DNA of 64,000 bases, taken from IMG/VR virus record IMGVR_UViG_2786546475_000019, positions 974 to 64,973 of that record. The stretch is one strand, 5' to 3'. Source of the stretch: a virus. The position numbers were made by a program, and so were the translations under genes. The stretch's first letter is position 1. Every line of letters begins with the position of its first letter. Positions 3,258-58,586 of the stretch are shown here, piece by piece. The notes under the pieces were generated by a model, which had not been told where the DNA came from, did no database searches, and worked only from the letters and a program-made list of their open reading frames with translations.

Positions 3258-3268
3258 CCTCAGTTACT

Positions 3269-3574: not shown

Positions 3575-3585
3575 CCAAACAAACC

Positions 3586-7309: not shown

Positions 7310-7320
7310 TTAATAGACCA

Positions 7321-8408: not shown

Positions 8409-8430
8409 AACGCAAAACAAAAGAGAACAA

Positions 8431-10265: not shown

Positions 10266-10274
10266 GGTGATAAA

Positions 10275-14894: not shown

Positions 14895-16407
14895 AAACAC
14901 TTCCGACTCGTTCAACTTTGATTTGAATATTACCAAATGGTATGAAGCTTATTATGGCGGGTATCAATTCATTGATAAATATCTGTACCAACAATCAAGC
15001 GAAAAGACAACTGAATTTGAGATACGTAAAAAGATTGCGTACAACCCTCCAGTATTGCAAAACGAGGTAGATCGTATTTTAAGAGCCGTCCAAGAACGTT
15101 TGCACTTGGTCAAACGGCGTAACGGCTCTCGAACCTATCAACAAATGGTAGCAGGAGAGAACGGCGGAGTAGATTATTTTGAGACCAACATGAATTTGTT
15201 TATGGCGGATCAAGTTCTACTTCACTTACTGATAGGCGGCGGGTGTGGAATCTTTATTGATAATTACGGCCCCGAAGATTTAACGTTTGAAGGGAACACT
15301 CACCCGTTCCTTCGAGTAGTTCCTCGTTACAAAATCACGCAAATGGAATACGGAGCTAATCGACAATTTGATAAAGTTTGTTTTGAAAATTTCAAATTTG
15401 AACGAGATTCAGACGGTCAACTTTGGTACACAGTTTACGACACGGACCCCGAAAAAGAGAAAGAGATCGATACACAAGGCCAATTGGAACTAAGCCGTAT
15501 TCCTTTTGTGTGGATTGAAATGCCACGACCCTTGTTGCGAGATGCAGCTGATATGCAAATTGCTTTGTTGAACCAACACTCAACTGAGCTTGAGTTCGCT
15601 ACCAAGTACAACTTTCCAATTTATTACGAGTACACGTCTCCTCGCGGTGGCGGAGACGTGCGTGATAAAAATCGAGAAATTGAACTTACCAAAACAAAAG
15701 GACGTAAAGTTAAACAAGGTTCTGGCCCTCCAGGTTATGTTACCCCGCCAACTGAAAATTTGGACGCGTCCATGCGTAAGAGTGAGCAGATCACTCAATT
15801 GATAAAAGACACTATCAATTCGAACATGGAAGAAAATAAAGAGGATGGTCAAAGCGGCTTGTCCTCATTGGGTCGCTTAATGGAGCGAGCGGAAAATGAA
15901 GTAGCCACGCTTCTAGAAGAATATATCAATGAAGGCGGACAAGCAAGAGTTTGTTACCCAAAAGTGTTCACCCTTCAAACGGTTGAAGAACGAACAGCTG
16001 AAGCTGAACTGTTTGAAAAAATGAGCAATTGCGTACCATCCAAAACGTTTCGAATGGTAACGCATAAGCAAAAAGCAGAAACGCTACTTGGCCCTGTTCT
16101 AACTACCGAAGAACTTGATGTTATATTCAAAGAGATCGAAGAAGCTCCGGCTTCGTGTGTAAACCCTGAAATGCTTTTAAAGCTTCTAGAAAAAGGAGCT
16201 TTGACTACTCATTTAGTTAATGAAATTCTTGGGTATCCTGCTGACGAAGCAGATAAAGCTTTGGAGCAACTTGCTGACCGAATGGCCGTCACTGTGGTAG
16301 CTCAAAGCAAAGCTAAAGAAGTTCAAAGTGATAGTTTACCAGACGACGCTCGACAAGCTCAACGCGGCGAGCAAGATGTTCCTAATGATATTGGAGAGCC
16401 TACCTAA
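14881..16407 (+). CDS. Portal protein
   Basis: 508 aa immediately after the terminase, acidic C-terminal region, canonical position. Confidence 0.55.
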   Translation: MLSFRNTSDSFNFDLNITKWYEAYYGGYQFIDKYLYQQSSEKTTEFEIRKKIAYNPPVLQNEVDRILRAVQERLHLVKRRNGSRTYQQMVAGENGGVDYFETNMNLFMADQVLLHLLIGGGCGIFIDNYGPEDLTFEGNTHPFLRVVPRYKITQMEYGANRQFDKVCFENFKFERDSDGQLWYTVYDTDPEKEKEIDTQGQLELSRIPFVWIEMPRPLLRDAADMQIALLNQHSTELEFATKYNFPIYYEYTSPRGGGDVRDKNREIELTKTKGRKVKQGSGPPGYVTPPTENLDASMRKSEQITQLIKDTINSNMEENKEDGQSGLSSLGRLMERAENEVATLLEEYINEGGQARVCYPKVFTLQTVEERTAEAELFEKMSNCVPSKTFRMVTHKQKAETLLGPVLTTEELDVIFKEIEEAPASCVNPEMLLKLLEKGALTTHLVNEILGYPADEADKALEQLADRMAVTVVAQSKAKEVQSDSLPDDARQAQRGEQDVPNDIGEPT

Positions 16408-17757: not shown

Positions 17758-19122
17758 ATGGCTTCGCCTAACGATGCGTTGATTCCTGAGCTATGGGCCC
17801 AGGAAGCTATTAACTTGATGTGGGAAAATTTCCTTTTCGGGCAATTGTTCCACACCGAATTCAAAAACCAAATTGCTGTTGCTGGCGACGTGGTTAACAC
17901 CTCTCGACCTGTTCGGATGCGTGCTCACCGTAAGAACAGCGACATTCAAACTATCAATGACCAAACCGCACGTTCAACTAATATCAAAGTTGAACTGAAC
18001 CAGCAAATTTACGTTTCGTTCTTGCTGGGTTCACGGGACCGGTCTTTGAGTTTTGTTGACTTGACAAGCAAGTATCTTGTCGAAGCGATGCAAGCTCAAA
18101 TCCGAATGATCGATCGCTCGATTGCTGGACACATTGCATTGTTCTTGGCCAACGCAGTTGGTACTTCAGGAACTATCAGTGCGTCTAACGCTTACAACCA
18201 ACTCACGTTGGCTCGTAAGAAACTGAACGATTACAATGTTCCTGAGCCAAACCGTCGGTTTGTCTTTGGCAATCGTTCGGATATCGCGTTCTTGCAAGAT
18301 GATCGCTTTATCAATAGCGATTACAACGGCATGGGCGGTACAGCGGTTCGCGAAGCGTATCTTGGTCGAACTCTCGGCTTTGATATGTTCCGTTCGCCAA
18401 ACTTGCCTATGGCTGAGAACTGCCCTCAACAGTCGCCAACGACTGTTGACGGAGCGGCAGCAGCAGGAGCTACGACTATTGACGTAGCAACTGGTACAGC
18501 CCCAGCTGTGAACTCGTACATCGAGATCGCAGGGGAAGGTTCTCCAAACTTGGTCACGGGAGTTTCAACTGATACTCTCACCTTGAAGCGTCCTCTGCGT
18601 AACGCCGTTGCTGACGGTGCCGCAGTCAAGATTTTCTCTCAAGGTGCTGTGAATAACGCAGCAGGCCACGATGCTGGTGATAACTTTGACGCCAAGGCAA
18701 ACGGTTACGCTGCTAACTGGGCCGAGGACATTGCTGTTGACGGTAACGTCCCAGCAGTTGGTCAAATTATCTCGTTTGCTTCGCATGACGCCGAGTACGT
18801 TGTTGTGAATCTCGAAGGTAGCAACATTCTTTTGGATCGCCCATTGGAAGCTGCAATCGATGACAATGACACTGTTGCTTTGGCTGGTGACTTCGAATTG
18901 AACTTCGCGTTTAACCCGAAAGCTATCGGTATCATTTCCCGTCCATTGGCTGTGGAGATGGAAGGAACTGGCGTCCGTTCAGCAATCGCCGAAGGTTATG
19001 GCTTTGGTGTTCGCGTGGATATCGGTTTTGACGGGACCAAGCAAGCACAACGTGTGACCATCAGCTCGTTGCTCGGTCTCAAGCAGTTGGATGAAGAACG
19101 CGGAGTACCTCTCCTTGCGTAA
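17758..19122 (+). CDS. Major capsid protein (with a probable insertion domain)
   Basis: 454 aa, strong RBS (ggagatgaagt ATG), position after the scaffold, Ala/Gly-rich insertion. Confidence 0.55.
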   Translation: MASPNDALIPELWAQEAINLMWENFLFGQLFHTEFKNQIAVAGDVVNTSRPVRMRAHRKNSDIQTINDQTARSTNIKVELNQQIYVSFLLGSRDRSLSFVDLTSKYLVEAMQAQIRMIDRSIAGHIALFLANAVGTSGTISASNAYNQLTLARKKLNDYNVPEPNRRFVFGNRSDIAFLQDDRFINSDYNGMGGTAVREAYLGRTLGFDMFRSPNLPMAENCPQQSPTTVDGAAAAGATTIDVATGTAPAVNSYIEIAGEGSPNLVTGVSTDTLTLKRPLRNAVADGAAVKIFSQGAVNNAAGHDAGDNFDAKANGYAANWAEDIAVDGNVPAVGQIISFASHDAEYVVVNLEGSNILLDRPLEAAIDDNDTVALAGDFELNFAFNPKAIGIISRPLAVEMEGTGVRSAIAEGYGFGVRVDIGFDGTKQAQRVTISSLLGLKQLDEERGVPLLA

Positions 19123-28899: not shown

Positions 28900-29705
28900 A
28901 AGACCGTAAACCTAGTGACCTGTCTGATGAATTTCCTGAACGAATTTTTCCAAATTTAAAACCGCCTGGAACTATTCGAACTGAACGAATAGGTCTCCCA
29001 AAACAAGACGCGTTCTACAACGACACTACCGAAGATCCGTACACAGATGATAGGTTGTTGTCGGAAGTTGGGGTCGTTGTTAAAAAGAACAGTAATGCCG
29101 TTTACGTAGTCCATACTCAAAATGGCGTTCAACGTACTTCGTTAGCTTTGGACCCAAATCGAGAATATCAAATTGGACGGGAAGTAGTTTTACAGCCGCC
29201 CCGATTAGAAGGGGATGACTGGCTTATCATTGGTGAGACTCGTCAACGAGAGAGTGAGTATGTAATTTGGAAAGCTCGCCATAATGGAACGTCCTATGCT
29301 TTCCAAGCTGACCCAATGAAAGAATCCCATTTGGAGCTAGACGGAGCTGACTGGAAACGATTTGCTACGGTCCTTGGCTCAACAATGACGCTACCTCCAG
29401 GTTGGTATGATATTTCAATCAACGTTAAGAGCCTAGGCAGCTCTCTGCTAGTTGTTGATATGACGCAAGTTGGTGGAGATCAAGGAAGCGACTCAGCCCC
29501 AGCTTCATGGACATATGACGTGGAACACAATGGCACGGAGCTTGCTACAGATTACGACCCTGTGAGCGGTAACATTTATAAACGTCCATCTATTGGCCAA
29601 CTAAGTGTAGCAACCAAGGGTATCTGGGCAGCAGGAGCTATTGTTTGGTGTAACGAAGCTTTGGTTGGTGGCGACTGTGACGATCTTGTAGGATGGGAAG
29701 GGTAA
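28890..29705 (+). CDS. Tail-associated hypothetical protein
   Basis: 271 aa, coupled to the J-like gene. Confidence 0.35.
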   Translation: MPVEDRKPSDLSDEFPERIFPNLKPPGTIRTERIGLPKQDAFYNDTTEDPYTDDRLLSEVGVVVKKNSNAVYVVHTQNGVQRTSLALDPNREYQIGREVVLQPPRLEGDDWLIIGETRQRESEYVIWKARHNGTSYAFQADPMKESHLELDGADWKRFATVLGSTMTLPPGWYDISINVKSLGSSLLVVDMTQVGGDQGSDSAPASWTYDVEHNGTELATDYDPVSGNIYKRPSIGQLSVATKGIWAAGAIVWCNEALVGGDCDDLVGWEG

Positions 29706-30379
29706 TGAAGAAGTCAATCGTATTGGTAGCAGTTGGCCCCATGTTCCAATTCTATCAACAGTATACTAAACGCCGCTTTGAAGCTTACGCTGATAAAATA
29801 GGAGCTGAGTTAATAGTCCTAACTGGCATCACTCAAAAGTGGTGGGGTTTAGAGAAATACCGAGTGTCTAAACTTGAACTAACTGGCCCAACAGTTTACA
29901 TTGATGTAGACGTTTTGATTCAAAGTTGGGCTAGAGACATTTTTGAACTTTATCAACCGGGGAAAGTTGGGATTTATGACGACTACCCCGAAGCTAGAGA
30001 AGCTCAACCGGGAAACGACTGGGCTCCCCGTGAATGGTCGGAAATGATGCAGTACCAACACATCGATGACCCTTTTAGGGAGCGACTTTTAAATAGCGGG
30101 GTAGTGCTTTTTGATAAAGAGACCCAACATATTTGGAACCCGCCGCCTTTTCGATTTAAGCCTAGGCATTGTGCGGAACAGTTCTGGATTGATTATCAAG
30201 TCGGTGACAACTGGTTCCCGTTGCCTAGGGAATTCAACCATCAACATTGGACTAAAAGCTTTGCTACCTCGTTTCATAAAAGCGATTTTGTGCACTTGTC
30301 CGCCTGCAAGAATCGAGAATATTGGATCGCTAAATACGAGCACCTTTTAGATAGGAGCCAACCTTATGACAACAATTGA
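29693..30379 (+). CDS. Putative nucleotide-sugar glycosyltransferase (GT-A fold, DXD motif)
   Basis: IVLVAVGPMFQ ... TVYIDVDVLI (DXD) pattern. Confidence 0.4.
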   Translation: MGRVMKKSIVLVAVGPMFQFYQQYTKRRFEAYADKIGAELIVLTGITQKWWGLEKYRVSKLELTGPTVYIDVDVLIQSWARDIFELYQPGKVGIYDDYPEAREAQPGNDWAPREWSEMMQYQHIDDPFRERLLNSGVVLFDKETQHIWNPPPFRFKPRHCAEQFWIDYQVGDNWFPLPREFNHQHWTKSFATSFHKSDFVHLSACKNREYWIAKYEHLLDRSQPYDNN

Positions 30380-33403: not shown

Positions 33404-33612
33404 GCCAAAGCCAACTTGAAGCTTACGCCAGACAACGTAAGTTTAGGCCCAAGATGGAAAATGTTCAAATTTGTGAACAGTGCGACCACTTAATACGTGA
33501 TCGCTACTGTTCCAAATTTGGCAAGTGTCCTGACGCTCAAAAAGATTTCTTTAAAGCCCTTGAACGAAGTAAATGTCCTTTAGAGAAATTTCCGTCGCAG
33601 CTCAGCGAATAG
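33400..33612 (+). CDS. Small Cys-rich protein (CEQCDH...CSKFGKCPD)
   Basis: ORF of 70 aa, last gene of the + strand block. Confidence 0.3.
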   Translation: MSQSQLEAYARQRKFRPKMENVQICEQCDHLIRDRYCSKFGKCPDAQKDFFKALERSKCPLEKFPSQLSE

Positions 33613-33996
33613 AATTCTAACTTGCTTAGGAGTTAACTCTAACAAACGCCCGATTTCCGAATACGTATAGTATTGAAGTCGTAAACTTACAGCCCATCGC
33701 TCCTCGACAGTTAGCCTATCTAGGTCAAACTGATCGAGGAATTCTTCTGCACTTCTTGATAATTCTTCAATATCGCCTAACGCTTCGGTATCATTGTTTG
33801 TTTGCATTTTCTTTCGACGACGGTAAGCGTCAATACCTCTCGACCGTAGTAAGGTTCTTAAGTGTGAGATGAATTTCTTTTCCTCAACTAGCTCATGATA
33901 ATTCTCCCACGCTTGTAAAAATTCCAAAGATAGCGAGCAGTCAAATTTAGTTTCAAACTCTCGCAACAAGTAAACATAATCGTCGATCCTTCGCAT
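33580..33996 (-). CDS. Sigma-factor region-4-like HTH protein (possible ECF-type sigma or anti-sigma-related)
   Basis: C-terminal YSEIGRLLELTPKQVRILFAELRRKF resembles a sigma-70 region 4 HTH. Confidence 0.35.
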   Translation of the reverse strand: MRRIDDYVYLLREFETKFDCSLSLEFLQAWENYHELVEEKKFISHLRTLLRSRGIDAYRRRKKMQTNNDTEALGDIEELSRSAEEFLDQFDLDRLTVEERWAVSLRLQYYTYSEIGRLLELTPKQVRILFAELRRKFL

Positions 33997-34005: not shown

Positions 34006-34593
34006 CTACACTGCTGTTAAGTCTAGCCAACACAATTTTTTGTAAATTTTAGCAGTCAACAACGTATCATAAAGAGCGTCATGCAAACTAGCTTGATCGT
34101 AAGGAATGTCCAAAGCTTTGGCTAATGAGCTAAGCTTCACATCTGGGAACAATGGCTTATGGCCCCGAAGCTCACATCTATCATTGATAAAGTGAGCATA
34201 ATCCATGGTGTCTCTACAGAACCCGTGGAAGTGGAGTCCATAAGTTGCCGACCCATATAGTTTCTCCAACATAGGCCTATCAAAATCTTTGTAGTTGTGT
34301 CCAACTGGCAAGATTCTAGACCATTCCGCTGAGAAGTTTAACCGTTCAACCCAGTCTTCAAACGCATCCATTGCTTGGTCCTGAGTCAATCCATGGATGC
34401 TGGCTTTAGCTGCGTAGGGCGAAGTGATATTTACTTCTGGTTTTATCAACCACTGAACCGCTAGATGTTCAACAGGATCAAGATTATCATTAAGAGGAAT
34501 CATAGCAACTTGCCAGACCTCATCTAGCTCTACATCCGTTCCTGTCGTCTCAGTATCAATGCAGACTAACAAACTTCCTTTATGGTTTAACAT
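34006..34593 (-). CDS. DEDD-family 3'-5' exonuclease (DnaQ-like)
   Basis: Exo I motif LLVCIDTETTG. YDTL in the C-terminal region is consistent with Exo III. Confidence 0.6.
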   Translation of the reverse strand: MLNHKGSLLVCIDTETTGTDVELDEVWQVAMIPLNDNLDPVEHLAVQWLIKPEVNITSPYAAKASIHGLTQDQAMDAFEDWVERLNFSAEWSRILPVGHNYKDFDRPMLEKLYGSATYGLHFHGFCRDTMDYAHFINDRCELRGHKPLFPDVKLSSLAKALDIPYDQASLHDALYDTLLTAKIYKKLCWLDLTAV

Positions 34594-35230
34594 TTTCTAG
34601 GCCCCCAGAATTAAGACCTTTGATAGACTTAGCCAGTTTTAGGGTCTTCGCAATCAAATCCTGAATGCTTCCATCATTTTCCAAAATGAAAGTTGCACGC
34701 TCCTTGAACCGTCCAACATCTTCGGAGACGTGCTCAGGTTTAGGAGGAATCTTGCCCGGACGTTCAAGATAAATTGTAACATCGAACAAATCAAACTCGT
34801 TATCAAACCTAACGTCGTCAGCCAAGAATGAATTTGACCCCATGAAATTTAAAACGCCTCGGACGTGAGCGTCCTTATTAAGCGTTCGAACAATCCCCGT
34901 CCCAAAATATTGCATCAACATTCGAGGAGTCTGCATGATAGGATGGTCCCAATGAGCCACTCGTTCAATTCCTCGAAGCGAAACTCCGCTACGTGTTTGG
35001 AAATGGAGACAAAACTTACGAATAACTCTGGGCCCGATTACTCGTTCATTGATGCGAATGCCTTTGAAGAAACTTTCAAGCCAGAAACATCGCTCCAAAC
35101 CAAAAGTCAAAGACAACGCACTTTTCAAATGTTTAGCCAACGGATGATAGTAAAGCTCTAGCTCTTGGGTAAGAACTTGAGCCACGAGACTTTTTCCACT
35201 TCCTTTGTAGCCAATGATACCTACTCTCAT
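34580..35230 (-). CDS. P-loop nucleotide/nucleoside-monophosphate kinase
   Basis: Walker A GIIGYKGSGKS at the N-terminus. Confidence 0.5.
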   Translation of the reverse strand: MRVGIIGYKGSGKSLVAQVLTQELELYYHPLAKHLKSALSLTFGLERCFWLESFFKGIRINERVIGPRVIRKFCLHFQTRSGVSLRGIERVAHWDHPIMQTPRMLMQYFGTGIVRTLNKDAHVRGVLNFMGSNSFLADDVRFDNEFDLFDVTIYLERPGKIPPKPEHVSEDVGRFKERATFILENDGSIQDLIAKTLKLAKSIKGLNSGGLENVKP

Positions 35231-35655
35231 TCTTTTTCTCCTTTTTCTGGATTACCGAAACAGTTGTAACAAATACCTTCTACTAAGCAATAAGCTTCAC
35301 AATCCCCGCAATGTTCGCCAAGGTCTGTAGGAATACCATGATATTCGATAGGCTTATTGTGCTCTGTTGCGTAGTCCAACTCAGCTTGAACGCCGATTGA
35401 TTGTCTCCAACCCCACTGAGTTAGAACTATCAAAGATTCACAAAAGCTCAAATACTCTAAGTCAATCTTTTCCCAAAAGTCCCAAGTGGTGGCCACGTTG
35501 GACATATGTTTCTGAAGCTCATGACTGTGAGTAATAGGGCTGTAAACGTTGGTCCCATTCTGAACCAAACGGGCCGCGTACCTTGTGACTACTCCAAACC
35601 GATGGTCTATCATTCGAGAATCAGAGTGAGTGTAAGGGGTAGCTAAATATATCAT
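35227..35655 (-). CDS. Nucleoside 2-deoxyribosyltransferase-like fold protein with a C-terminal Cys cluster
   Basis: IYLATPYTH ... VYSPITHSH ... pattern, then CGDCEAYC...CYNC. Confidence 0.35.
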   Translation of the reverse strand: MIYLATPYTHSDSRMIDHRFGVVTRYAARLVQNGTNVYSPITHSHELQKHMSNVATTWDFWEKIDLEYLSFCESLIVLTQWGWRQSIGVQAELDYATEHNKPIEYHGIPTDLGEHCGDCEAYCLVEGICYNCFGNPEKGEKE

Positions 35656-36347
35656 TTGCTTCTCCGGTTAGCTTGATAATTTGCGATTGAAAACCCACGA
35701 GGAGTCATACTACGAATCTCTTTTACGTTAGGGTGTGATCCTCCAATTTTACCATATTGCCGGGAGTATCCATCTTCTGGTATCACTTTCTTTTTAGGCG
35801 GCATCTTAAACCCGCCACCTGTCCACAGGTATGTTTCCTTCGGGTACGCGTCCCGTGGAGCAATATATTGTGGCCAAGTAGGGTGTTCATCATCTTCTGG
35901 TAAGTACCCACCGTATTCGTACGGGTGAAACTTGTAATCTGGTTTACGCCACAAAGATGATAGTCTCGATTTAGGATTCTCAATGAACCACGGACATTGC
36001 AACTCTGTGAAAACGCGACGACACCAGATAGCGTAACGTGCAGCTTTGTATTGGAAGTCTGGATCGTGGCCTTCTTTCGAGGGCCAGTGAATAATTCCAG
36101 AGACTGCCAAGTCGGTACAAACAGGGAACGCCGCCCCAAATACCACTTCCTTTCCTTGAAAAGTATCAATGATACGCCTAACTTGTTCCAGGTCGTGAAG
36201 GTCAGCCTTGTGGAAATGAATCACGTTGTCCCCGATCCGTTGTCGATGATCTACGTGCTTTATATCGTAAGCATGACATTCGTAACCTGCTCTGGCCCAA
36301 GGATGAAGTAACACCCCGGAGTGATCGTACAAGCTTAAAACTATCAT
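35652..36347 (-). CDS. Short cytosine-C5-methyltransferase-like protein (divergent, 231 aa)
   Basis: LSLYDHSGVLLHPWARAGYECHAYDI (motif I-like), FPVC (PC-motif-like), FIENP (ENV-like). Too short for a canonical DNA C5-MTase. Confidence 0.3.
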   Translation of the reverse strand: MIVLSLYDHSGVLLHPWARAGYECHAYDIKHVDHRQRIGDNVIHFHKADLHDLEQVRRIIDTFQGKEVVFGAAFPVCTDLAVSGIIHWPSKEGHDPDFQYKAARYAIWCRRVFTELQCPWFIENPKSRLSSLWRKPDYKFHPYEYGGYLPEDDEHPTWPQYIAPRDAYPKETYLWTGGGFKMPPKKKVIPEDGYSRQYGKIGGSHPNVKEIRSMTPRGFSIANYQANRRSK

Positions 36348-37168
36348 ACGGCCACGTCACCTTTGATAGCCGGATGGGGATTGTAACCTTCAAGAATAAT
36401 ATCTTCCCACCGAAGTGATAAAATATTCTCCAAAGGAGATAACACCGGATCAGCTTGCCTTGCAAAACGAAGCTTTGGAGCTTCTTTAGCTGGGCGTCTC
36501 AACTGTAGGTTGACTTGATCTACGTGGTTGTTGTAGATATGAGCGTCGCCAAACGTATGGTAATACGTCTTGGGTTTAAGGTCCGTGGCCCACGCCAAAA
36601 TGTACATAAGCAACACGTAGGATGCAATGTTAAACGGAACGCCAAGAAACATATCAGCAGAGCGTTGATACATTTTCAAGGACAGTTCTCCATTTGATAC
36701 GTAGCATTGGAAAAACATATGGCACGGCGGTAAGGCCGCATCTCCACCTGGAAGGTGATGTTTTGGGTGCCAAGCAGAGCAAATAACTCGTCGGCTGTTT
36801 GGAGACTCAGTTAGGCAATCAAGCACGTACTGAATCTGATCTACGCCGTTGAAGTCTCTCCACATCTTCCCATACACCGGACCAAGCTCTCCGGCAGCGT
36901 CTGCCCATTCGTCCCAGATATGAACATTCAGGTCTTGTAACGATTTGATATTTGTCTCTCCTCGAAGAAACCACATCAGTTCCTCAAATACCAACCGCAA
37001 AGGTACAAACTTTGTAGTGAGCAATGGGAAGTGACTACTGATTGTTCCGTAAATTTGAGGGCCGAATAGACGAATTGTTCCGGTCCCTGTTCTATCATCA
37101 TGTGTTTCTCCGTGGAGCAAAACACTTTTAAGTAATGACAGATACTGTTGTTCTAACGCTGAATACAT
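36344..37168 (-). CDS. thyA: Thymidylate synthase (ThyA family)
   Basis: DRTGTGT, ALPPCHMFFQCYV catalytic Cys motif, FLGVPFNIASY (Asn for dUMP), DAHIY. Aligns along its length with E. coli ThyA by eye. Confidence 0.85.
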   Translation of the reverse strand: MYSALEQQYLSLLKSVLLHGETHDDRTGTGTIRLFGPQIYGTISSHFPLLTTKFVPLRLVFEELMWFLRGETNIKSLQDLNVHIWDEWADAAGELGPVYGKMWRDFNGVDQIQYVLDCLTESPNSRRVICSAWHPKHHLPGGDAALPPCHMFFQCYVSNGELSLKMYQRSADMFLGVPFNIASYVLLMYILAWATDLKPKTYYHTFGDAHIYNNHVDQVNLQLRRPAKEAPKLRFARQADPVLSPLENILSLRWEDIILEGYNPHPAIKGDVAV

Positions 37169-37585: not shown

Positions 37586-38236
37586 TTAAACCATATTCAA
37601 AGTAATTGGAGGTTTGTCGCTTTTTAAAAGTTTAGCTAGCTTTTCTAACGCTCGCTTTTCAAGTTGACGAACTCTTTCTCGCGAGATATTAAGAGTTTCC
37701 CCAATAGTCTTAAGAGGAATCCCTTGGGCTCGTAGCCTCAAAACTAAAGCATCTCGACTATTTAACTCAAGAAAAGCTTTTTCTAGAGCAATAAGCTCCT
37801 CTTGCCATTCTATCAAATCCCTATCAAGACATTCTAAAGGTGTAACAGGGTTATTAAATAGCCCGTGTAAGGTTTGAAACATTGGAGCACGAGCTATAGC
37901 AGCTTTAGCTCTGTCAAGATGAGCTGGATTTGGAGATACTTTAATTAACTCCACCTTGGTTTTCATGTAAGTTATCATTCGTTGTTTCACCCACGGAGTG
38001 GCGTAAGTTGAAAACTGATAACCTTTACTAGGGTCAAATTTTTTGACCGCCTGACATAACCCACTCATTCCTTCTTGAATTAAATCGTCTAAATCAAGCT
38101 TAGAATTTTTCTTGGCAAAAGACACCGCTATCTTGATAACCAATCCTTGATTATCTAACACTAACCGATTGAGTGCTTCATCAGCTTCCTTTCTAGCAGA
38201 ATGATATTTTTGTAATAACTCGTCATTAGTATCCAC
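37586..38236 (-). CDS. Sigma-70 family RNA polymerase sigma factor (group 3/4-like, SigF/FliA-sized)
   Basis: Region 2: DLIQEGMSGLCQAVKKFDPSKGYQFSTYATPWVKQRM. Region 4: TIGETLNISRERVRQLEKRALEKL. Confidence 0.65.
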   Translation of the reverse strand: MDTNDELLQKYHSARKEADEALNRLVLDNQGLVIKIAVSFAKKNSKLDLDDLIQEGMSGLCQAVKKFDPSKGYQFSTYATPWVKQRMITYMKTKVELIKVSPNPAHLDRAKAAIARAPMFQTLHGLFNNPVTPLECLDRDLIEWQEELIALEKAFLELNSRDALVLRLRAQGIPLKTIGETLNISRERVRQLEKRALEKLAKLLKSDKPPITLNMV

Positions 38237-39327: not shown

Positions 39328-39682
39328 CCGGTTTCTCCGTATTTGATAACAATATTGCAGTCCGCGTAACGCCGCCTATGGTCCACGTATTAGGGAGTAG
39401 CTCAATAAGCTCCTCTGCAATCTCTTGCATCTCCTCTTTATCAATGCTATTTGAAGTTACAAGAATATCAACGCCATGGTCGTAGACCATGTTTCGCCCG
39501 CAGAATGAACAGTTTTCGGCCATATAAGCGTAGACTATTTGGAAAGGAGAAAGATCTTCAACAGTGATATAAACGTTGTAGGTGTCAATACTGATACTCA
39601 AAGATTGAGCATCTTCAATATCAGACAATGCTTCACGTAACTTGCCTGCCGTTAAAGTCTTATCTTCTAGTTTCATCTTCAT
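39305..39682 (-). CDS. Hypothetical protein
   Basis: ORF of 125 aa. Confidence 0.35.
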   Translation of the reverse strand: MKMKLEDKTLTAGKLREALSDIEDAQSLSISIDTYNVYITVEDLSPFQIVYAYMAENCSFCGRNMVYDHGVDILVTSNSIDKEEMQEIAEELIELLPNTWTIGGVTRTAILLSNTEKPDGKSDII

Positions 39683-40206
39683 AGGTCCCCGTCCTTTCGG
39701 TTGTTTGATTCTTCGACGGTAAAACCTTTCTTGTACCGTCCTTCAAGTTTGTTTCGATTCATTTGTAGCACTTCTTCAAGTGTTGAGCCAATTGTTTGAG
39801 CGGCTTCCCGTATGTAGCCTATTAAAAGGCCATGACACCGTTTCACAAGTTCTCGGTCAAAAGGCAGACCTTGATAAAAGACTTTCTTTTTATGTTCTGC
39901 CAATGTTTCGAGGGTTTCTAAAATGCTGTCCCCACTATCTACCCATATCTCGAACGGCTCAATATCAATTGACGCCGCAAGCAGCAAAACGTAGAACAAC
40001 ATATCGCCAAGCTCAAGTTTAATATGTCGAGCGTCGTCCGTGTTCCTCGTTTCAAAGAACTCAGCCACGATCCCATCAACAGCAGTCGCGAATCGCGGAA
40101 CGTCGACCTCTTTATGAAGGTTCCTTTGAGCTTCAAAATACTCGTGAAGATCGCTTGATTGAGGTGATAATTTTTCGTTAATAAAGTTAAGATGTTCTTT
40201 AAACAT
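39679..40206 (-). CDS. MazG-like nucleoside triphosphate pyrophosphohydrolase
   Basis: IKLELGDMLFYVLLLAASIDIEP matches the EExx(E/D) MazG helix. Confidence 0.55.
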   Translation of the reverse strand: MFKEHLNFINEKLSPQSSDLHEYFEAQRNLHKEVDVPRFATAVDGIVAEFFETRNTDDARHIKLELGDMLFYVLLLAASIDIEPFEIWVDSGDSILETLETLAEHKKKVFYQGLPFDRELVKRCHGLLIGYIREAAQTIGSTLEEVLQMNRNKLEGRYKKGFTVEESNNRKDGDL

Positions 40207-43693: not shown

Positions 43694-43911
43694 CGTATTT
43701 CAATCTCTCCCATCATAAGAAGTTCTTCTAGCCCAAACACTTCATCTTCCCCACAACTGGTACAGTGATAGTTTCGAGCGTCTGGCTCACAATAATCATC
43801 CGCAGGCTCCTCGCACTTGCGACAGAAACCGTGTCCGCCTTCCATAGACATCTCAGTGTATTCAGTTTCAGTTAATTCAATCATAGCTTTCCTTTCAAAT
43901 GAAGTAGCCAT
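43690..43911 (-). CDS. Small Zn-ribbon protein (CRKCEEP...CTSCGED)
   Basis: ORF of 73 aa. Confidence 0.3.
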   Translation of the reverse strand: MATSFERKAMIELTETEYTEMSMEGGHGFCRKCEEPADDYCEPDARNYHCTSCGEDEVFGLEELLMMGEIEIR

Positions 43912-44387
43912 TCCGGCTCAGTAGTTCCAACGTATCCCATACCTTTGCCAAGAATCTTGTCTTGATAATAATACCATCGGTATGAGAAGATACAGTCTTC
44001 GAAATCTCCGGCCAAGCCTTTATAATATCCAGGCATAGCCAAGTTTGGAGGAGTAAGAGGGCCACGTCGTATGTAACACGGAGATTGATAAAGATACCCA
44101 ACCCGGTTCCATACTTCATGTAAAGCTAACCCTCTCTTATCCCGCTCCTTCAACAACGCTATCATATGCTTCAAAGTCCATTGATAATTTGAATCAGTGG
44201 AACGAACCCATTGAGTTGACGGGTGATTTGCGAAGCATGGTTTACACATTCCTTGACGCCAAAGTCCAACTTCGTCATGTGCCGTTGATAACATTTGGGC
44301 ACACTCAATCGGCATTTTTGTTAAATGGTCCGTGGCCATGTAGCTAGCTGCAAGGACCGGGTCCATATCAAGGAAGAAAACATTCAC
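43881..44387 (-). CDS. Conserved phage protein of unknown function (N-terminal FFLDMDPVLAASYMATDHLTKMPIECAQMLSTAH)
   Basis: ORF of 168 aa. The N-terminal motif looks familiar from phage/viral proteins but I cannot assign a family. Confidence 0.35.
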   Translation of the reverse strand: MNVFFLDMDPVLAASYMATDHLTKMPIECAQMLSTAHDEVGLWRQGMCKPCFANHPSTQWVRSTDSNYQWTLKHMIALLKERDKRGLALHEVWNRVGYLYQSPCYIRRGPLTPPNLAMPGYYKGLAGDFEDCIFSYRWYYYQDKILGKGMGYVGTTEPEWLLHLKGKL

Positions 44388-44770
44388 GCCCCAAGTCCAA
44401 GCGATTTGATGGAAGCCCTTTTGAGTGCTGTCAAGGTAACAACACGTCCAAGTAGCTTGGAAAGTGTTTCTTCGAAGTTATCAAGTTGCTCCGATAATTT
44501 GTATTCGAAGCCGTTCAAAAGTATCACTTCTTCCAAGTTCTCAGAAACCCAAGAATTTAAGTCTTGGTCTTTCACAAGATACTTACCGTCTTGAATCGTT
44601 AACTTGCCATTGATAGTTGGGCCTTTCAATTCGTCTCGCCAAATTTTCACGTTTTCAGGAGCGGTTATGTTAATTGAAGCAGCTCCTGATCCTGCATCAA
44701 AGATTGTTACCCGAACGTCGTTCCCAATTGTAAATGATTGCGACGCCCAGCGTTTAAGAGTTAACGCCAT
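44384..44770 (-). CDS. Hypothetical protein
   Basis: ORF of 128 aa. Confidence 0.35.
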   Translation of the reverse strand: MALTLKRWASQSFTIGNDVRVTIFDAGSGAASINITAPENVKIWRDELKGPTINGKLTIQDGKYLVKDQDLNSWVSENLEEVILLNGFEYKLSEQLDNFEETLSKLLGRVVTLTALKRASIKSLGLGA

Positions 44771-44790: not shown

Positions 44791-45816
44791 TTAAAGTGTG
44801 ACTGTGAATGTTTCCGAAGCCCGTGTGACTGCCGTATATCGCCAACGGACCGGGCTCCAAAGGTCGCATTGTTCATCTACAATATGAACGTGCTCCCACT
44901 CAGAACCTTGTGATTTGTGTGTTGTAATAGCGTAAGCGTGATCAATTGCAAGCAGCCCTTTTGGAAAGGCATCATACAAATCACGCTGGTTCATGGACCG
45001 TCCAATCGAATCCAAGCCTACGTCGCTAATTGTATCATCTTCAAAAGTGACGTTAGCTACCATATCGTCATGCCATTTGTTCACTTTTCGAATGACCTTA
45101 ACCATTCCGTTGTAGAATGGTGGGTCATTTTTCAAAATGATAATTGGCCGCCCTGGAATCAAAGGGTTTGAAGGGTTGTCGTGGAGTTCCCGATTCAAAG
45201 AGTGACGAGTTTTATTAAACCCGCACAAAATGATCTTATCACCGGGCGTGGACCTGTACCATGATACAGGGTCCGTGTCCGCTACGAAACGATCTGAATA
45301 TTTGCCCGACGCTCGAACATACATGGACTCCTGAATGATAGGGTTGTCTGCTGCTTGCCGATGAATCGTGGACAACTCTACATCAAGGTCAAGCATCAAA
45401 TTTGGATTCTTACCGACTGGCTCCAACTGTCCATGATCTCCGGTGAGTATCACTTTCATGTTGTAACTCAGAAGGTCTTCCCAAAGCCGTTGATTCACGG
45501 TGCTTGCTTCGTCAATGTAGAAGTAAGTCCCAAGAATATCTTTCTTTGGCTTCTTGAAGAATCTCATACTCTTTCTATCAAATCGATAGATTGTGCTATG
45601 AATTGTTTGAGCTTTCTTTACTCCTTTCTTACGCAACTGCTCAACGGCCTTACCCATAAAAGCACAAGGGACTCCTCCGGGTTTACGTCGCAATATCTCT
45701 TGGGCAATCGTAGTCTTCCCAGTACCGGCGTACCCGCCAATACGGAAGACTTGCTGACTGGAACTAAGAGCTGTGTTGATTACAGACTCTTGTTCAGGCG
45801 TTAGAATTATCATCAT
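44791..45816 (-). CDS. SF1B helicase, Dda/RecD-like
   Basis: Walker A GYAGTGKTT, Walker B YFYIDEAS, ILTGDHGQLEPV, AITTHKSQGSEW. Confidence 0.65.
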   Translation of the reverse strand: MMIILTPEQESVINTALSSSQQVFRIGGYAGTGKTTIAQEILRRKPGGVPCAFMGKAVEQLRKKGVKKAQTIHSTIYRFDRKSMRFFKKPKKDILGTYFYIDEASTVNQRLWEDLLSYNMKVILTGDHGQLEPVGKNPNLMLDLDVELSTIHRQAADNPIIQESMYVRASGKYSDRFVADTDPVSWYRSTPGDKIILCGFNKTRHSLNRELHDNPSNPLIPGRPIIILKNDPPFYNGMVKVIRKVNKWHDDMVANVTFEDDTISDVGLDSIGRSMNQRDLYDAFPKGLLAIDHAYAITTHKSQGSEWEHVHIVDEQCDLWSPVRWRYTAVTRASETFTVTL

Positions 45817-54628: not shown

Positions 54629-55396
54629 TTAACTCCCAAGAATATAAAGTGCTTCAACCACGGAAGATCGAATCTCGCCAGCAGATTGATAGATTCGATA
54701 CTCGTACTTTTCAGTCCATTCCTGAGCTTCCAAGTATGTGTTCTTGTAGTGATTGATAACAACAGTGCCTTGTCGGTCCTTGGCCCACGAAACAATTTCC
54801 TCAAGCGAGATCAGATCGAACCCTTGTGTCTCATCGTAAGGCGGGTCCAAGTAGAATAACGCATCGACACTATCATATGAAGCTAGCTTCTTCCAGTCCC
54901 AATTCTCGATTTGCCACTTGCTAATACGAGCACGAAGCAGGGGCCAGATTCTCATTTTACTGGCTACATTCGGCTGCTTCTGTGAGAAGTTGCGAGCGTA
55001 GTTAAGCCTCCGCCCCAAGTAAGACATAACCGCTGTCACGTACCACTTTGCTGCACGCTTCACGGGGTTACTTGATAGCTGCCAAGTCTTTTTGCAATGC
55101 AACCATTCTTCTTCGGAAGAAGGATGATACTTTTTAAGTTCTTCGACAAGCTCCTCGTAGTGGTTACGGAACGCTCGATAGAAGTCAATGATCCCGGAGT
55201 CTTTATCATTAAACACCATGTACGGGAACTGAGCCACGTTCAATGATACCATTCCTGTCCCGCCAAACACGTCAATAAATTTCTTGTGCGTGTCTCGCAT
55301 GTGGTTCAGAATAGGAAGAATATGTTGCAAGGCCCGTGCCTTAGACCCTATCATTCGAAACGGAGCTTCACGTTTCTTGAAGTCTTTATCAGTCAT
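54629..55396 (-). CDS. DNA N6-adenine methyltransferase, Dam family
   Basis: DVFGGTGMVSLNV (motif I, FxGxG) and YLDPPY (motif IV DPPY). Confidence 0.7.
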   Translation of the reverse strand: MTDKDFKKREAPFRMIGSKARALQHILPILNHMRDTHKKFIDVFGGTGMVSLNVAQFPYMVFNDKDSGIIDFYRAFRNHYEELVEELKKYHPSSEEEWLHCKKTWQLSSNPVKRAAKWYVTAVMSYLGRRLNYARNFSQKQPNVASKMRIWPLLRARISKWQIENWDWKKLASYDSVDALFYLDPPYDETQGFDLISLEEIVSWAKDRQGTVVINHYKNTYLEAQEWTEKYEYRIYQSAGEIRSSVVEALYILGS

Positions 55397-55979: not shown

Positions 55980-58586
55980 TTAAGTTGCCCTTTCTCCCTT
56001 AATCGTTTCCCTTTTAACACCGTCTGGAGTTTCAACAAAACGAAACCCGTTGTCTTTCGGAGCTTCATACGAGAAGCGAACATTGTAGATACATGTCTTT
56101 TGCATCTCGTCAATAGCTATCAAATACATTTCCGCTAGGTTCTGTTCGAACTTCTTACGATTTGCTCGCCCCCCGTCGTCCATGTAGTTCTTATACAGAA
56201 GTTGAAGCTCCACTTTTGATCCAGGCTGTTCTTGGAGCACGGACCGTGCAAAGAGTTCAACGTCGGTTCGGTTCAAGTCCGCAGCTTGCTCTTTATCAAC
56301 CGTATCCACAACAGGAACATTCAAACGCCCCTGAGTTGGCGGTATTTGATACGCTAACAAGGCATACAGAAACGCGGGAGCTTGAGCTTCCAGTTGTTCC
56401 AAAAGAAGTTTCTTTGGAATAACTTTATCTGGCTTCTTGGGTACATTGATAACCGTGATTCGGGTGTCTCCGGGAAGTATCGGACAGAACTCACGATTGT
56501 TCGCGGTGTGAATCCAATGCGACGTATTAGGTATCATGTAAGCGGGCTTGCCTTTTGTGTTGACTGAGATTACTTTGGACGTAACATAGTCTTTAACTTT
56601 TTGATAAACAGTGGAGTCCGAGTTCAAGTTAATCTCCTCAAGAACGCAAAGCACCGCCCCAGCAAGTTCACTGTTGAACGAGCTGACTAACGCGTTCTCC
56701 GCTCGAACGACACCGGGACTAAACAACAATGATAATGCTTCATGCAAAATCGACTTCCCGGTGTCTTGCTCCGTGGAATACAAAAACAGAAACGGCAAAG
56801 GTTCAAACGGTTGTTGTATCAATGACGCGACCCACGCAAACAGATAGTCGTGTCCTTTGCAAATACCGTTCTCCGTGAACCAATTATCCTTACGAACGTA
56901 TTGATCTAGAGAGTGTCCGATATGGTCCAGAATCTTCATCCAAAGATCAAAGTTTCCTTCTTCTGGAGTGTGTCGCAGTTGAGCAGCTCCCCGATTCCAT
57001 AAACGATTACCCGGATATTCAGACTCAAAGGGTCGTGAAACAATGTTCCAGGGCTTCATGATAGCTTCACCCTGCATCTGCTGAATCTCTTTAGTGTTCA
57101 TTCCTTGGCTTTTGAGACCGAGCGTCAGGTTGGCGATCGGTTCTTCGATCCAACCGTTATCATGCGTCTCAATAGCCCAACCGGCGTCCACGCTACCCAT
57201 AATCATGTGACGAATCTGCGTATTCGTGTCCACGTCATACGGGCTACCAGTACGAGACTCTTTTATCACTTTCAACCAACGTGTTCCTTTTGCGATCCAA
57301 CCTTCAATGCCGCCTGGGTCGCCTTTGATTTTCGGAATCTCAATTTTAAGCTTGTTTTCCTTTAGCTGAGTGACAGTTGCTTGACGAGCTATCAATACTT
57401 CGTCAATGGCTTGCATTTCATGTTGCTGGAAAAGCTTAGTCAATTTATGAGCAGGAAGCACCATTCCTTTTTTATCATCTTCTAACGCTCCTGAATCTTT
57501 CACCAAGGTCCAAAGCGGTGGAACATAATTCAAATACGTGCGAGTCCATCCGTTCTTCGTGGTCCACGATTCATGTTCCTTGGCTTCGTTGCCATATCGG
57601 TACACGGCCCATGCTCCGTGTGGAAGCGGATACGCGAAGCAGTTCTGTTTGTGGAGATCAGTTCCGTCACTGATAGTCTGGAAATCGCCTTTAAACCCGA
57701 GTTCTTTGGAAGCTTGCTCCAATAGTTTAGTGTGCGTGATAAACATCTTTCCTTCCGCGTTCCAGTAACCAAACGCGGAGTTGTTATTCATCCACTCAAG
57801 CAAACGCTCATGTTCTTCTTCAAGCGTCACGGACTGTTTGTGCTTGATAATTTCTTCCATACGGTCATCAGCATAAGAGTGTTTCTTCTTACCGCTCACG
57901 ACGCCAATATGATCTCGCCATCCCAGCGGCTCTTTGATATGGGCCTCAGCTTCCTTAATAATTTGAAAGCCGTTCTCTCCCGTTTTCCGTGACCATACCC
58001 ACATATTACAACCGAAAACATCAACTGCAAGGTCAAAGTCGAAACCAGTCTCAAGACATAGTTGACTCAGAACGCCGCGAGCAAGAGCAGCGTGTTCTGC
58101 CCGACTTGTCGTAGTGATAAGGTCTTCAAAGAAAACATATAAGTGGTAGCCAGCTCCACTTTTAGATCGTTGTACTCGCACCCAAGGTACGTTACACGCT
58201 CGTTGTTGAATATCAAGTAGATCAGTCTGCGTTAGCTTGTGCTTGTGCCGAGCTGAGTGGCCCACGATACCGTCAAAGTCGAAAGCAACATATCGCGAGA
58301 TGCATTGCCCAAAGTCCCACCCCGATAAACCAACCATTGAGGCGTGATCTTCCAGGCTGAACTTGATATTTCCTTCATCGTATTTGCCATCAATTCGAAA
58401 ATTCTTCCAGACTTGAACACCGTCAGTCCACTCCCGGTAGGTCCGACCTTTGTATTCCTTATCAACAGGCTCGCCGCCATCAGCGGCTACGTTTACTTGA
58501 ACTTCCATTGTAGGCGAGTATAACGCCGCCATGTGGGGTTCTGCGTTATCACGCAAGAATCGTTCTAAAGCTTCACTTTTACGCAT
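55980..58586 (-). CDS. Bifunctional primase-helicase: AEP/PrimPol-type primase N-terminal domain plus a D5/P4-alpha-like SF3 helicase C-terminal domain
   Basis: VAFDFDG ... SGAGYHLYVFF (AEP motifs). LYSTEQDTGKS Walker A. ATG at 58586 with a gagg RBS preferred over the TTG at 58592. Confidence 0.75.
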   Translation of the reverse strand: MRKSEALERFLRDNAEPHMAALYSPTMEVQVNVAADGGEPVDKEYKGRTYREWTDGVQVWKNFRIDGKYDEGNIKFSLEDHASMVGLSGWDFGQCISRYVAFDFDGIVGHSARHKHKLTQTDLLDIQQRACNVPWVRVQRSKSGAGYHLYVFFEDLITTTSRAEHAALARGVLSQLCLETGFDFDLAVDVFGCNMWVWSRKTGENGFQIIKEAEAHIKEPLGWRDHIGVVSGKKKHSYADDRMEEIIKHKQSVTLEEEHERLLEWMNNNSAFGYWNAEGKMFITHTKLLEQASKELGFKGDFQTISDGTDLHKQNCFAYPLPHGAWAVYRYGNEAKEHESWTTKNGWTRTYLNYVPPLWTLVKDSGALEDDKKGMVLPAHKLTKLFQQHEMQAIDEVLIARQATVTQLKENKLKIEIPKIKGDPGGIEGWIAKGTRWLKVIKESRTGSPYDVDTNTQIRHMIMGSVDAGWAIETHDNGWIEEPIANLTLGLKSQGMNTKEIQQMQGEAIMKPWNIVSRPFESEYPGNRLWNRGAAQLRHTPEEGNFDLWMKILDHIGHSLDQYVRKDNWFTENGICKGHDYLFAWVASLIQQPFEPLPFLFLYSTEQDTGKSILHEALSLLFSPGVVRAENALVSSFNSELAGAVLCVLEEINLNSDSTVYQKVKDYVTSKVISVNTKGKPAYMIPNTSHWIHTANNREFCPILPGDTRITVINVPKKPDKVIPKKLLLEQLEAQAPAFLYALLAYQIPPTQGRLNVPVVDTVDKEQAADLNRTDVELFARSVLQEQPGSKVELQLLYKNYMDDGGRANRKKFEQNLAEMYLIAIDEMQKTCIYNVRFSYEAPKDNGFRFVETPDGVKRETIKGERAT

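Follow-up and report, generated by a model that had tools for sequence, protein, structure and literature searches.

The locus lies in a stretch of 64,000 nucleotides of viral DNA (positions 974 to 64,973 of IMG/VR record IMGVR_UViG_2786546475_000019), which is called the window here. The interval from 34006 to 37168 carries five minus-strand ORFs, all of them found where an earlier reading of the letters (the original prediction) had placed them. Each has a family match far above chance, and the gene identifications of that reading are correct. The same gene calls were made on independent contigs by public gene callers. The five genes and two others of the window are as follows.

36344..37168, minus strand: thyA, predicted folate-dependent thymidylate synthase of the canonical kind (274 aa)
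35652..36347, minus strand: predicted Dcm-like orphan C5-cytosine methyltransferase of a short phage family (231 aa; phrog_757)
35227..35655, minus strand: DUF1937 protein with a predicted NDT/MilB/Rcl-like fold and a C-terminal Cys cluster (142 aa; PF09152)
34580..35230, minus strand: predicted T4-gp1-type deoxynucleoside monophosphate kinase (216 aa; PF21448, phrog_139)
34006..34593, minus strand: predicted DnaQ/RNase T-family DEDDh 3'-5' exonuclease (195 aa; PF00929, phrog_192)
39679..40206, minus strand: predicted MazG-like nucleotide pyrophosphohydrolase (175 aa; PF03819, phrog_229)
54629..55396, minus strand: predicted Dam-like (D12 class) N6-adenine DNA methyltransferase, a second orphan methylase (PF02086, phrog_56)

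At the thyA/methyltransferase, methyltransferase/DUF1937, and DUF1937/kinase junctions, stop and start codons overlap as ATGA, the kinase gene shares 14 nt with the exonuclease gene, and GGAG-type ribosome-binding sites lie upstream of the starts; the five genes are predicted to be translationally coupled. The nearby MazG of the original prediction was recovered 2.5 kb upstream of the block, transcribed in the same direction and above the PF03819 cut-off (29.7 bits versus 22; phrog_229 E value, 5.7e-18). The five genes close the arm of early and replication genes in an uncultured tailed phage of marine origin. Nucleotide searches against GenBank phages did not turn up any relative of the window, and a distant search with the five-gene region gave short gene-level matches only.

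RESULTS

ThyA has the features of a canonical thymidylate synthase

ThyA matched PF00303 with an E value of 2.6e-97 (325.6 bits versus a cut-off of 24.3) and scored above both NCBIfam equivalog cut-offs (NF002497, 330.5 versus 327; TIGR03284, 309.8 versus 108.35). Its identity is 52% with E. coli ThyA and 47% with T2 Td; with T4 gp42, SPO1 gp29, and a Xanthomonas phage thymidylate synthase homologue it is 21 to 24% (gp42, 21%; gp29, 23%). The motifs DRTGTGT (residues 25 to 31), IWDEW (84 to 88), PPCH (147 to 150), and YQRSAD (167 to 172) are followed in the C-terminal half by PFNIAS (178 to 183), GDAHIY (207 to 212), and KGDVAV at the C-terminus. The catalytic Cys-His, the dUMP Asn, the folate Trp pair, the Gln-Arg-Ser, and the closing tail align column for column with those of E. 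coli ThyA. The ThyA call of the original prediction stands, as the RTGTGT, the PPCH, and the Asn (in PFNIAS) that it quoted are all present.

Hydroxymethylase character was sought in an alignment with gp42 and gp29 and was absent, with every synthase feature kept. By the equivalog cut-offs, identity, and motifs, we predict the protein to be a canonical thymidylate synthase. The suggestion that it might be a hydroxymethylase-type homologue serving base modification was not borne out, as its hydride-transfer and folate-closing features are intact. Because ThyA groups with the canonical synthases, the base-modification pathway also fails the refutation test that the original prediction had set for it.

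The kinase and the exonuclease belong to nucleotide and DNA metabolism families

The kinase scored 35.6 bits against PF21448 (DNMK; cut-off, 27.1) and matched phrog_139 over residues 3 to 206 (E value, 7.4e-25), and its Walker A motif, GYKGSGKS, occupies residues 7 to 14. The T4 dNMP kinase 1dek (PDB) was matched weakly (phmmer E value, 0.044). No relatives of the kinase appeared in an IMG/VR pattern scan, and a word-indexed search of 5.8 billion clusters returned only the kinase itself. The exonuclease matched PF00929 (E value, 8.7e-13) and phrog_192, annotated as a DNA polymerase exonuclease subunit (E value, 3.2e-28), and its matches to NCBIfam epsilon and 3'-5' exonuclease models were all below the cut-offs. 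It contains the motifs DTE (13 to 15), HNYKDFD (99 to 105), and HDALYD (171 to 176).

The 142-aa protein is a DUF1937 member

The original prediction had taken the 142-aa protein for a deoxyribosyltransferase-like protein with a Cys cluster. The cluster was found at residues 116 to 132, and the family that passed was DUF1937 (PF09152; E value, 3.9e-19; 69.8 bits versus a cut-off of 23), with the nucleoside 2-deoxyribosyltransferase family PF05014 below its cut-off (22.2 bits versus 28.8). E92 in the motif SIGVQAE was unvarying in 21 DUF1937 sequences; its proposed equivalence to the nucleoside 2-deoxyribosyltransferase (NDT) nucleophile comes from a visual comparison of the motifs. A 37-residue Cys-rich C-terminal tail on the window protein is specific to its lineage and was seen in none of its homologues. 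The structural model resembles proteins and domains that cut N-glycosidic bonds, namely MilB (hydroxymethyl-CMP hydrolase), Rcl/DNPH1, and TIR/ThsB. The window protein is probably an N-glycosidic-bond enzyme. DUF1937 recurs in diverse phage replication modules, and our literature search on it returned no papers.

The 231-aa protein belongs to a short Dcm-like family

The 231-aa protein matched phrog_757 over residues 1 to 229 (E value, 2.4e-60) and showed 40% identity over 228 residues to the Dcm-like protein bas06_0055 of phage KarlJaspers (E value, 2e-59). The KarlJaspers protein is near-identical to the Dcm of phage K42, and its gene, at 711 bp, has the length of the K42 dcm gene in a preprint (10.1101/2023.08.16.553469). 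Short methylases of the phrog_757 type are present in 1489 GenBank phage records, including T1-like, rV5-like, and other phages, and in marine phages the family fills more than 1600 clusters, yet it is invisible to Pfam. PF00145 (Pfam DNA_methylase) did not match the 231-aa protein even at an E value of 10; the KarlJaspers homologue gave an E value of 0.27 (11.1 bits versus a cut-off of 22), in register over motifs I to IV. An hhalign comparison of the family with single-sequence E. coli Dcm gave a probability of 0.3, a weak negative given the low diversity of the family alignment (Neff 1.9). The fold of the 231-aa protein appeared closest to C5 DNA methyltransferases; Foldseek returned generic Rossmann matches only, and PDB sequence searches with the protein and with the family profile gave nothing useful.

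The C5-methyltransferase-like motifs of the original prediction were recovered in the classical order, the SAM loop as SLYDHSG (5 to 11), the Pro-Cys nucleophile as the PC-type FPVCTD (74 to 79), the ENV-type Glu as ENP (123 to 125), and the Arg of motif VIII as WRKP (133 to 136), with C77, E123, and R134 unvarying across 40 family sequences. The SAM-loop FxGxG is atypical, its middle Gly being His in the window protein and Tyr, Phe, or His in the marine subfamily. The original prediction had further called the protein truncated and lacking a target-recognition domain (TRD). A large variable TRD between motifs VIII and IX is indeed absent, but a simple truncation does not describe the protein, which has about 75 residues (136 to 211) at the TRD position that are strongly conserved across the family and modeled with low confidence.

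The Dcm of phage K42 has been reported as the trigger of retron Ec86 and to methylate DNA, giving 5mC at CCWGG; 5mC was found by LC-MS on the retron msDNA, the effect needed a CCTGG site, and it was abolished by mutating C82, E128, K175, and K176 (10.1101/2023.08.16.553469). The first three residues correspond to C77, E123, and K170 of the window protein and are kept, and K176 corresponds to E171, at a position that is Lys in at least 90% of the marine relatives. We predict that the 231-aa protein is a short phage Dcm-like methyltransferase that stands alone and acts on C5 of cytosine in DNA, with CCWGG as its most likely target. Its cofactor use or activity could differ, considering the altered SAM loop and the change of K176 to Glu.

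The Dam-like ORF elsewhere in the window matched PF02086 (E value, 1.3e-18) and phrog_56, annotated as a DNA methyltransferase (E value, 3.9e-38). This pairing of Dam-like and Dcm-like genes is also seen in KarlJaspers and T1-like phages. The BASEL study describes such methylases as abundant in Drexlerviridae, with a presumed role against restriction, and it found no simple tie between these methylase genes and restriction resistance (PMC8594841).

Restriction sites are avoided in the window and CCWGG is depleted in carriers

GCGC occurs once in the window against 116 expected occurrences, a near-absence that is a clean signature of restriction pressure from the host of the phage. GAGCTC and CTCGAG are both missing (19 and 11 expected, respectively). 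The near-total avoidance of these three sites suggests that the DNA is cleavable and not globally modified. The window still holds 45 CCWGG and 200 GATC sites, and its site statistics fit ordinary DNA with methylation at some sites and avoidance at others.

Among the marine carriers of the short Dcm-like family, CCWGG was the most depleted of the 512 strand-symmetrized 5-mers, with an observed/expected ratio of 0.35 compared to 0.93 in control loci. This depletion ties the family to the CCWGG site. The single-mutant neighbors of CCWGG in the carriers were all mildly and similarly enriched (1.03 to 1.19). With this evenness the loss has the look of selection against CCWGG, and we rejected C-to-T decay by deamination of 5mC as its cause.

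No linkage of the genes was seen at related loci, and no modification enzymes were recognized

The original prediction had likened the locus to hypermodifying phages, in which such genes travel together. We found no such co-occurrence in 168 related loci: within 8 kb of the short Dcm-like gene at 85 loci and of the DUF1937 gene at 83 loci, none of the remaining four was present, by tblastn with single queries at an E value of 1e-5, a search that very divergent kinases or exonucleases could escape. The gene neighborhoods seen at these loci also differ.

ORFs scanned across the window with Pfam and PHROGs, many of which had no match at all, included no member of the hydroxymethylase, PurZ, CmoA, TET-like/dioxygenase, or glycosyltransferase families. 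The ORF at 29693-30379 looks glycosyltransferase-like by eye (DVDV motif) and had no Pfam or PHROG match. NDT domains associate with 2,6-diaminopurine phages (bioRxiv 10.1101/2025.10.22.683976), a link that we rejected here because neither a PurZ-like nor a DatZ-like protein turned up among the scanned ORFs. The CmoA-CmoX-CmoY system of Synechococcus phage S-B43, which makes 5-carboxymethylcytosine (PMC12783734), was set aside as well, since the ORFs scanned across the window showed neither a CmoA nor a CmoY homologue.

DISCUSSION

We think it likely, with a probability of roughly 0.8, that the locus combines a dTTP and dNTP supply set with an orphan anti-restriction methylase, as independent accessory genes and not as a pathway. 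The evidence favors the salvage or dNTP-pool alternative, which the original prediction had also offered. By family membership, ThyA would turn dUMP into dTMP, and the gp1-type kinase would raise dNMPs to dNDPs, including the new dTMP and the dNMPs from degraded DNA. The MazG-like protein may trim the dNTP pool, and the DnaQ-like exonuclease may either proofread for a borrowed polymerase or break DNA down to mononucleotides. The DUF1937 protein, whose fold is one of base-sugar bond cutting or swapping, would probably tune the pool of nucleosides or nucleotides. The 231-aa methylase would methylate the DNA of the phage once it is replicated, CCWGG being the most likely site, and together with the Dam-like enzyme it may blunt host restriction.

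On the other hand, the DUF1937 protein, the kinase, and the exonuclease could form a counter-defense or clean-up unit that destroys modified or signaling nucleotides, for example NAD-derived immune signals or the methylated dNMPs set free by DNA degradation, instead of supplying dNTPs. The likeness of the DUF1937 model to N-glycosidic-bond cleavers and the presence of the family in diverse phage replication modules point in this direction, and a methylated dNMP has been reported as an immune trigger (PMC12871103). We consider such a unit very unlikely. It is about as doubtful that the marine Dcm-like protein with its altered SAM loop, the Cys-tailed DUF1937 protein, and the divergent kinase act jointly, either on cytosine nucleotides or on modified nucleotides that come from DNA; if true, this would be a new route of cytosine modification or a way of hiding methylated nucleotides from host immune sensors.

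A hypermodification pathway, in which the ThyA homologue makes a hydroxymethyl pyrimidine nucleotide that the kinase and the transferase-like protein then process, appears highly improbable to us. The gene types bear a superficial likeness to such a cassette (a thymidylate synthase homologue, a P-loop kinase, a transferase fold, and a nearby MazG), and the many unannotated ORFs of the window could hide an unrecognized modification enzyme. However, ThyA is canonical by HMM cut-offs, by identity, and by all of its diagnostic motifs, the C-terminal tail among them, the kinase belongs with the T4 gp1 nucleotide kinase family, the scanned ORFs gave no other modification enzyme family, the five genes are unlinked elsewhere, and the avoidance of GCGC, GAGCTC, and CTCGAG suggests cleavable DNA.

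Action of the short methyltransferase-like protein on a mononucleotide (e.g., as a dCMP methylase), as the original prediction had proposed, or with a non-SAM donor seems highly improbable: the missing large TRD, the failure of PF00145, the altered SAM loop of the marine subfamily, and the position between thyA and nucleotide-metabolism genes would suit it, but the protein is a full-length phage Dcm-like member with a conserved region at the TRD position, DNA methylation in vivo has been reported for a homologue with 40% identity over the full length, about 1500 cultured phages carry the family, which is also present at marine loci without nucleotide-metabolism neighbors, CmoA and CmoY homologues were not detected in the window, and the CCWGG depletion ties the family to a DNA site.

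The result is mostly negative, in that what looks like a hypermodification cassette is a predicted canonical thymidylate synthase with unrelated accessory genes, and the five-gene set has no place on a list of candidate new DNA chemistries. Of modest use are a short Dcm-like family that is very abundant in marine phages, escapes Pfam, and has carriers that strongly avoid CCWGG, the recognition of DUF1937 as a recurrent gene of phage replication modules, and the near-absence of GCGC from this phage.

Compared with known systems, the window ThyA shares all catalytic and folate-binding motifs with E. coli ThyA and T-even Td, from which it differs by a short insertion ahead of the catalytic Cys, and it has no adjoining dihydrofolate reductase gene, whereas many phages have td-frd pairs. 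With T4 gp42 and SPO1 gp29 it has the superfamily fold and the catalytic Cys in common; these enzymes lack the IWDEW, the His of PPCH, the Gln of YQRS, and the C-terminal tail, all of which the window ThyA has, and the gp42 Asp is Asn in it. The kinase resembles T4 gp1 (PF21448, 1dek) in size and in its N-terminal Walker A motif and is otherwise very divergent. The DUF1937 protein has a structural-genomics counterpart in PA1492 (PDB 1t1j), to which it adds its Cys-rich tail. S-B43 CmoX is a full-length C5-methyltransferase homologue that works with the phage CmoA and an amide ligase. The closest comparison for the methylase is the KarlJaspers/K42 Dcm, with 236 aa against 231 and the same PC-Cys, ENP-Glu, WRKP, and conserved insert at the TRD position; the window protein differs in belonging to a marine lineage, in having the middle Gly of FxGxG changed to His (Tyr or Phe in marine relatives), and in having Glu in place of K176 of K42, and its gene adjoins thyA, whereas the KarlJaspers gene sits among small early genes.

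The cluster and its preferred reading

Five minus-strand ORFs, and exactly five, make up the cluster at 34006-37168, as the original prediction had it; public-contig gene callers call them identically, and all five products have a highly significant family match. These genes, and two others that enter the interpretation, are as follows (window positions).

36344-37168, -, ThyA, 274 aa
35652-36347, -, methyltransferase (MTase)-like protein, 231 aa
35227-35655, -, DUF1937 protein, 142 aa
34580-35230, -, P-loop kinase, 216 aa
34006-34593, -, DnaQ-like exonuclease, 195 aa
39679-40206, -, MazG-like protein
54629-55396, -, Dam-like D12-class N6-adenine DNA methyltransferase

At three of the gene junctions the overlap is ATGA and at the fourth it spans 14 nt, with a GGAG-type ribosome-binding site ahead of each junction start. 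Tight overlaps of this kind are the norm in phage genomes. All of the components are new members of known families, and together they do not amount to a new system. Our best reading, to which we give a probability of about 0.8, is a dTTP/dNTP-supply and replication-accessory set accompanied by an orphan Dcm-like DNA methylase. The former would consist of ThyA, the dNMP kinase, the nearby MazG-like protein, and the DnaQ-like exonuclease, while the methylase, together with the Dam-like enzyme, would shield the phage DNA from restriction.

ThyA and the case for modified DNA

The ThyA homologue passes two NCBIfam equivalog models, TIGR03284 (309.8; cut-off, 108) and NF002497 (330.5; cut-off, 327). 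When aligned with reference proteins from annotated records, its identity was 52% with E. coli ThyA and 47% with T2 Td, but only 21% with the dCMP hydroxymethylase T4 gp42, 23% with the dUMP hydroxymethylase SPO1 gp29, and 24% with a divergent Xanthomonas phage homologue. All the diagnostic features of the synthases are present, including DRTGTGT, the IWDEW tryptophan pair, PVYG, PPCH, YQRSxD, PFNIAS with its Asn, GDxHxY, and the folate-closing IKGxVAV tail at the C terminus, whereas most of these are absent or altered in T4 gp42 and SPO1 gp29. The motifs named earlier (RTGTGT, LPPCH, and the Asn) were read correctly, but the suggestion of a base-modification hydroxymethylase fails: judged by equivalogs, identity, and motifs, the protein groups firmly with canonical thymidylate synthases.

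Hypermodification had also been suggested by the company of these genes, which were said to travel together as in hypermodifying phages. We searched 80 viral and five metagenome loci carrying the methylase family (850 kb in total) and 83 loci carrying DUF1937 (1.04 Mb) with the other proteins, up to 8 kb around. None of ThyA, the kinase, the exonuclease, MazG, and the Dam-like protein was found in any of the 85 methylase loci or the 83 DUF1937 loci, and in neither set did any locus contain the reciprocal partner within that distance, which contradicts the claim. In other marine phages, the methylase is surrounded by small early genes, with GP88, integrase, and primase-helicase genes nearby, and DUF1937 elsewhere adjoins assorted helicases and recombination genes. 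Their juxtaposition is particular to the lineage of this phage.

When the larger ORFs of the window were scanned with Pfam or PHROG, many gave no match at all, and no family of hydroxymethylases, PurZ-like or CmoA-like proteins, dioxygenases, or glycosyltransferases turned up. The site statistics agree with ordinary, restrictable DNA. CCWGG (45 sites; observed/expected, 0.61) and GATC (200 sites; 0.73) persist for the most part, and GCGC occurs once in 64 kb, at position 1324, against 116 expected under a maximal-order Markov model (z, -10.7), leaving seven of the eight 8-kb segments without any. GAGCTC and CTCGAG are both absent (18.8 and 11.1 expected, respectively). This shortage of GCGC, GAGCTC, and CTCGAG has the look of strong avoidance of restriction sites under pressure from the host. 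Between the two options of the original prediction, base modification or a salvage/dNTP-pool module, a canonical ThyA and the lack of modification families among the ORFs scanned favor dNTP supply, and a DNA hypermodification pathway is very improbable.

The 231-aa MTase-like protein

No Pfam family was matched by this protein, including PF00145, for which even the KarlJaspers homologue reaches only an E value of 0.27. It does match PHROG 757, "DNA methyltransferase," from end to end (E, 2.4e-60). The metagenome protein collection holds over 1600 clusters of the family, mostly 55 to 60% identical to the query and lacking Pfam annotation, and the family is found in 1489 GenBank phage records, including T1-like Drexlerviridae, rV5-like and other enterobacterial phages, Campylobacter phages, and Roseobacter phage CRP-207. 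An alignment of 40 sequences showed invariant residues in the SLYD..G loop, FPVC77TD, E123NP, and WR134KP, in the order of a C5-methyltransferase core. About 75 well-conserved residues follow WR134KP in the position of a target-recognition domain; next come an RSxTPRGF motif and, close to the C terminus, an invariant Asn.

From end to end, the window protein shows 40% identity (E, 2e-59) to the product of a 711-bp gene of the T1-like coliphage KarlJaspers, annotated as a Dcm-like C5 cytosine methyltransferase. According to a preprint, retron Ec86 is triggered by the 711-bp dcm gene of K42, a KarlJaspers-like phage; 5mC was reportedly detected on msDNA by LC-MS, the effect needed a CCTGG site, and it was lost in a C82A/E128A/K175A/K176A mutant (10.1101/2023.08.16.553469). 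Of these four residues, C82, E128, and K175 have their counterparts in C77, E123, and K170 of the window protein, whereas K176 is replaced by Glu. The protein thus belongs to a family of phage DNA methylases that is backed experimentally by the K42 homologue. The earlier idea of a truncated enzyme that methylates a mononucleotide instead of DNA is not borne out for a full-length phrog_757 member and seems most unlikely. The SAM loop, SLFDGSG in KarlJaspers, reads SLYD[YFH][TS]G in the marine branch (residues 5 to 11 of the window protein), its middle glycine being replaced by Tyr, Phe, or His, and the branch is very strongly conserved despite this change.

In 61 marine loci carrying the Dcm-like gene, CCWGG was the most underrepresented of the 512 strand-symmetrised 5-mers (302 sites versus 855 expected; 0.35), and its ratio fell below 0.2 in 14 of the 56 loci for which 8 or more sites were expected. 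It was not depleted in KarlJaspers (1.04) or in DUF1937 control loci (0.93), which are unmatched to the carriers in phylogeny or composition. The pattern of the neighboring words points to selection against the site rather than to 5mC deamination decay. Marine carriers of the presumed CCWGG methylase thus also avoid CCWGG, which ties the family to this site, but only as a lead, because the control was unmatched.

DUF1937, the kinase, and the exonuclease

The 142-aa protein, originally described as deoxyribosyltransferase-like with a Cys cluster, scores 69.8 bits against the DUF1937 model and below the cut-off of the Pfam nucleoside 2-deoxyribosyltransferase model; the cluster is real, and the family assignment changes. 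It matches the structural-genomics protein 1t1j (E, 5e-14), and its homologues keep an SxGVxxE motif with an invariant Glu. Our literature search found no paper mentioning DUF1937 by name; the protein is probably an enzyme acting on nucleoside or nucleotide N-glycosidic bonds. The five cysteines (C116, C119, C123, C129, and C132) lie in a C-terminal tail (residues 106 to 142; 35227-35337, -) modeled at low confidence (pLDDT below 55). Homologues end near residue 105 to 110, and the tail is absent from all 20 metagenomic homologues retrieved and from 41 GenBank phage hits. This extension may serve as a small appended metal-binding module.

The P-loop kinase was identified correctly, passing the Pfam model of T4 gp1-type dNMP kinases (DNMK), matching phrog_139, and having an N-terminal Walker A motif. 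Its sequence is very divergent: a word-indexed search of 5.8 billion protein clusters returned only itself, and a pattern scan of IMG/VR gave no relatives. The putative dNMP kinase is thus unusually isolated, though above the DNMK cut-off. The exonuclease also held up as a DnaQ/RNase T-family protein with all three DEDDh motifs.

The phage and its genome

The window is the genome of an uncultured marine tailed phage, with its replication and accessory genes on a long minus-strand arm. The features used here are as follows.

13215-14894, +, large terminase
14881-16407, +, portal
17758-19122, +, major head protein
33580-33996, -, smaller, weakly sigma-like protein, just downstream of the cluster
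37586-38236, -, sigma-70-family factor (regions 2 and 4), just upstream of the cluster
43881-44387, -, weak pyrimidine-dimer excision (T4 endonuclease V-like) match, precomputed Pfam and phrog_624
44383-44769, -, CsrA-family protein on the replication arm, precomputed Pfam hit on the public contig
44791-45816, -, Dda-like helicase
55980-58592, -, primase-like protein (phrog_1156 DNA primase, Pfam DUF5906)
61415-63412, +, SNF2-type helicase

With sigma-type proteins on both sides, the cluster lies between phage transcription factors. The ORFs scanned in the window included no DNA polymerase, and the DnaQ-like exonuclease may therefore serve a host polymerase. Seven ORFs of 189 to 616 aa at 856-11554 (+) had no Pfam match (E up to 0.01), and the five of them also scanned against PHROG had no match there either (E up to 0.001); they form a sizeable block of presumably structural genes.

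Products identical to the MTase-like and kinase proteins are recorded from Tara Oceans contigs of 71 to 72 kb, and a nucleotide-level search of GenBank phages found none similar to the window. NCBI deposits the proteins of this phage under "MAG: Acidobacteria bacterium"; since the contig encodes a portal and a major head protein as well as a terminase, a phage genome appears to have been binned into a bacterial MAG.

Comparison with known phages

The remaining curiosities are the role of DUF1937 and its Cys tail, the altered cofactor loop of the marine Dcm-like proteins, the CCWGG avoidance, and the near absence of GCGC. According to the BASEL paper, methylases of these types are abundant in Drexlerviridae and presumed to counter restriction, although no simple correlation was found there (PMC8594841). 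The window phage has two orphan methylases, as do T1-like coliphages, and the pairing of a Dam-like with a Dcm-like methylase is the one also found in KarlJaspers.
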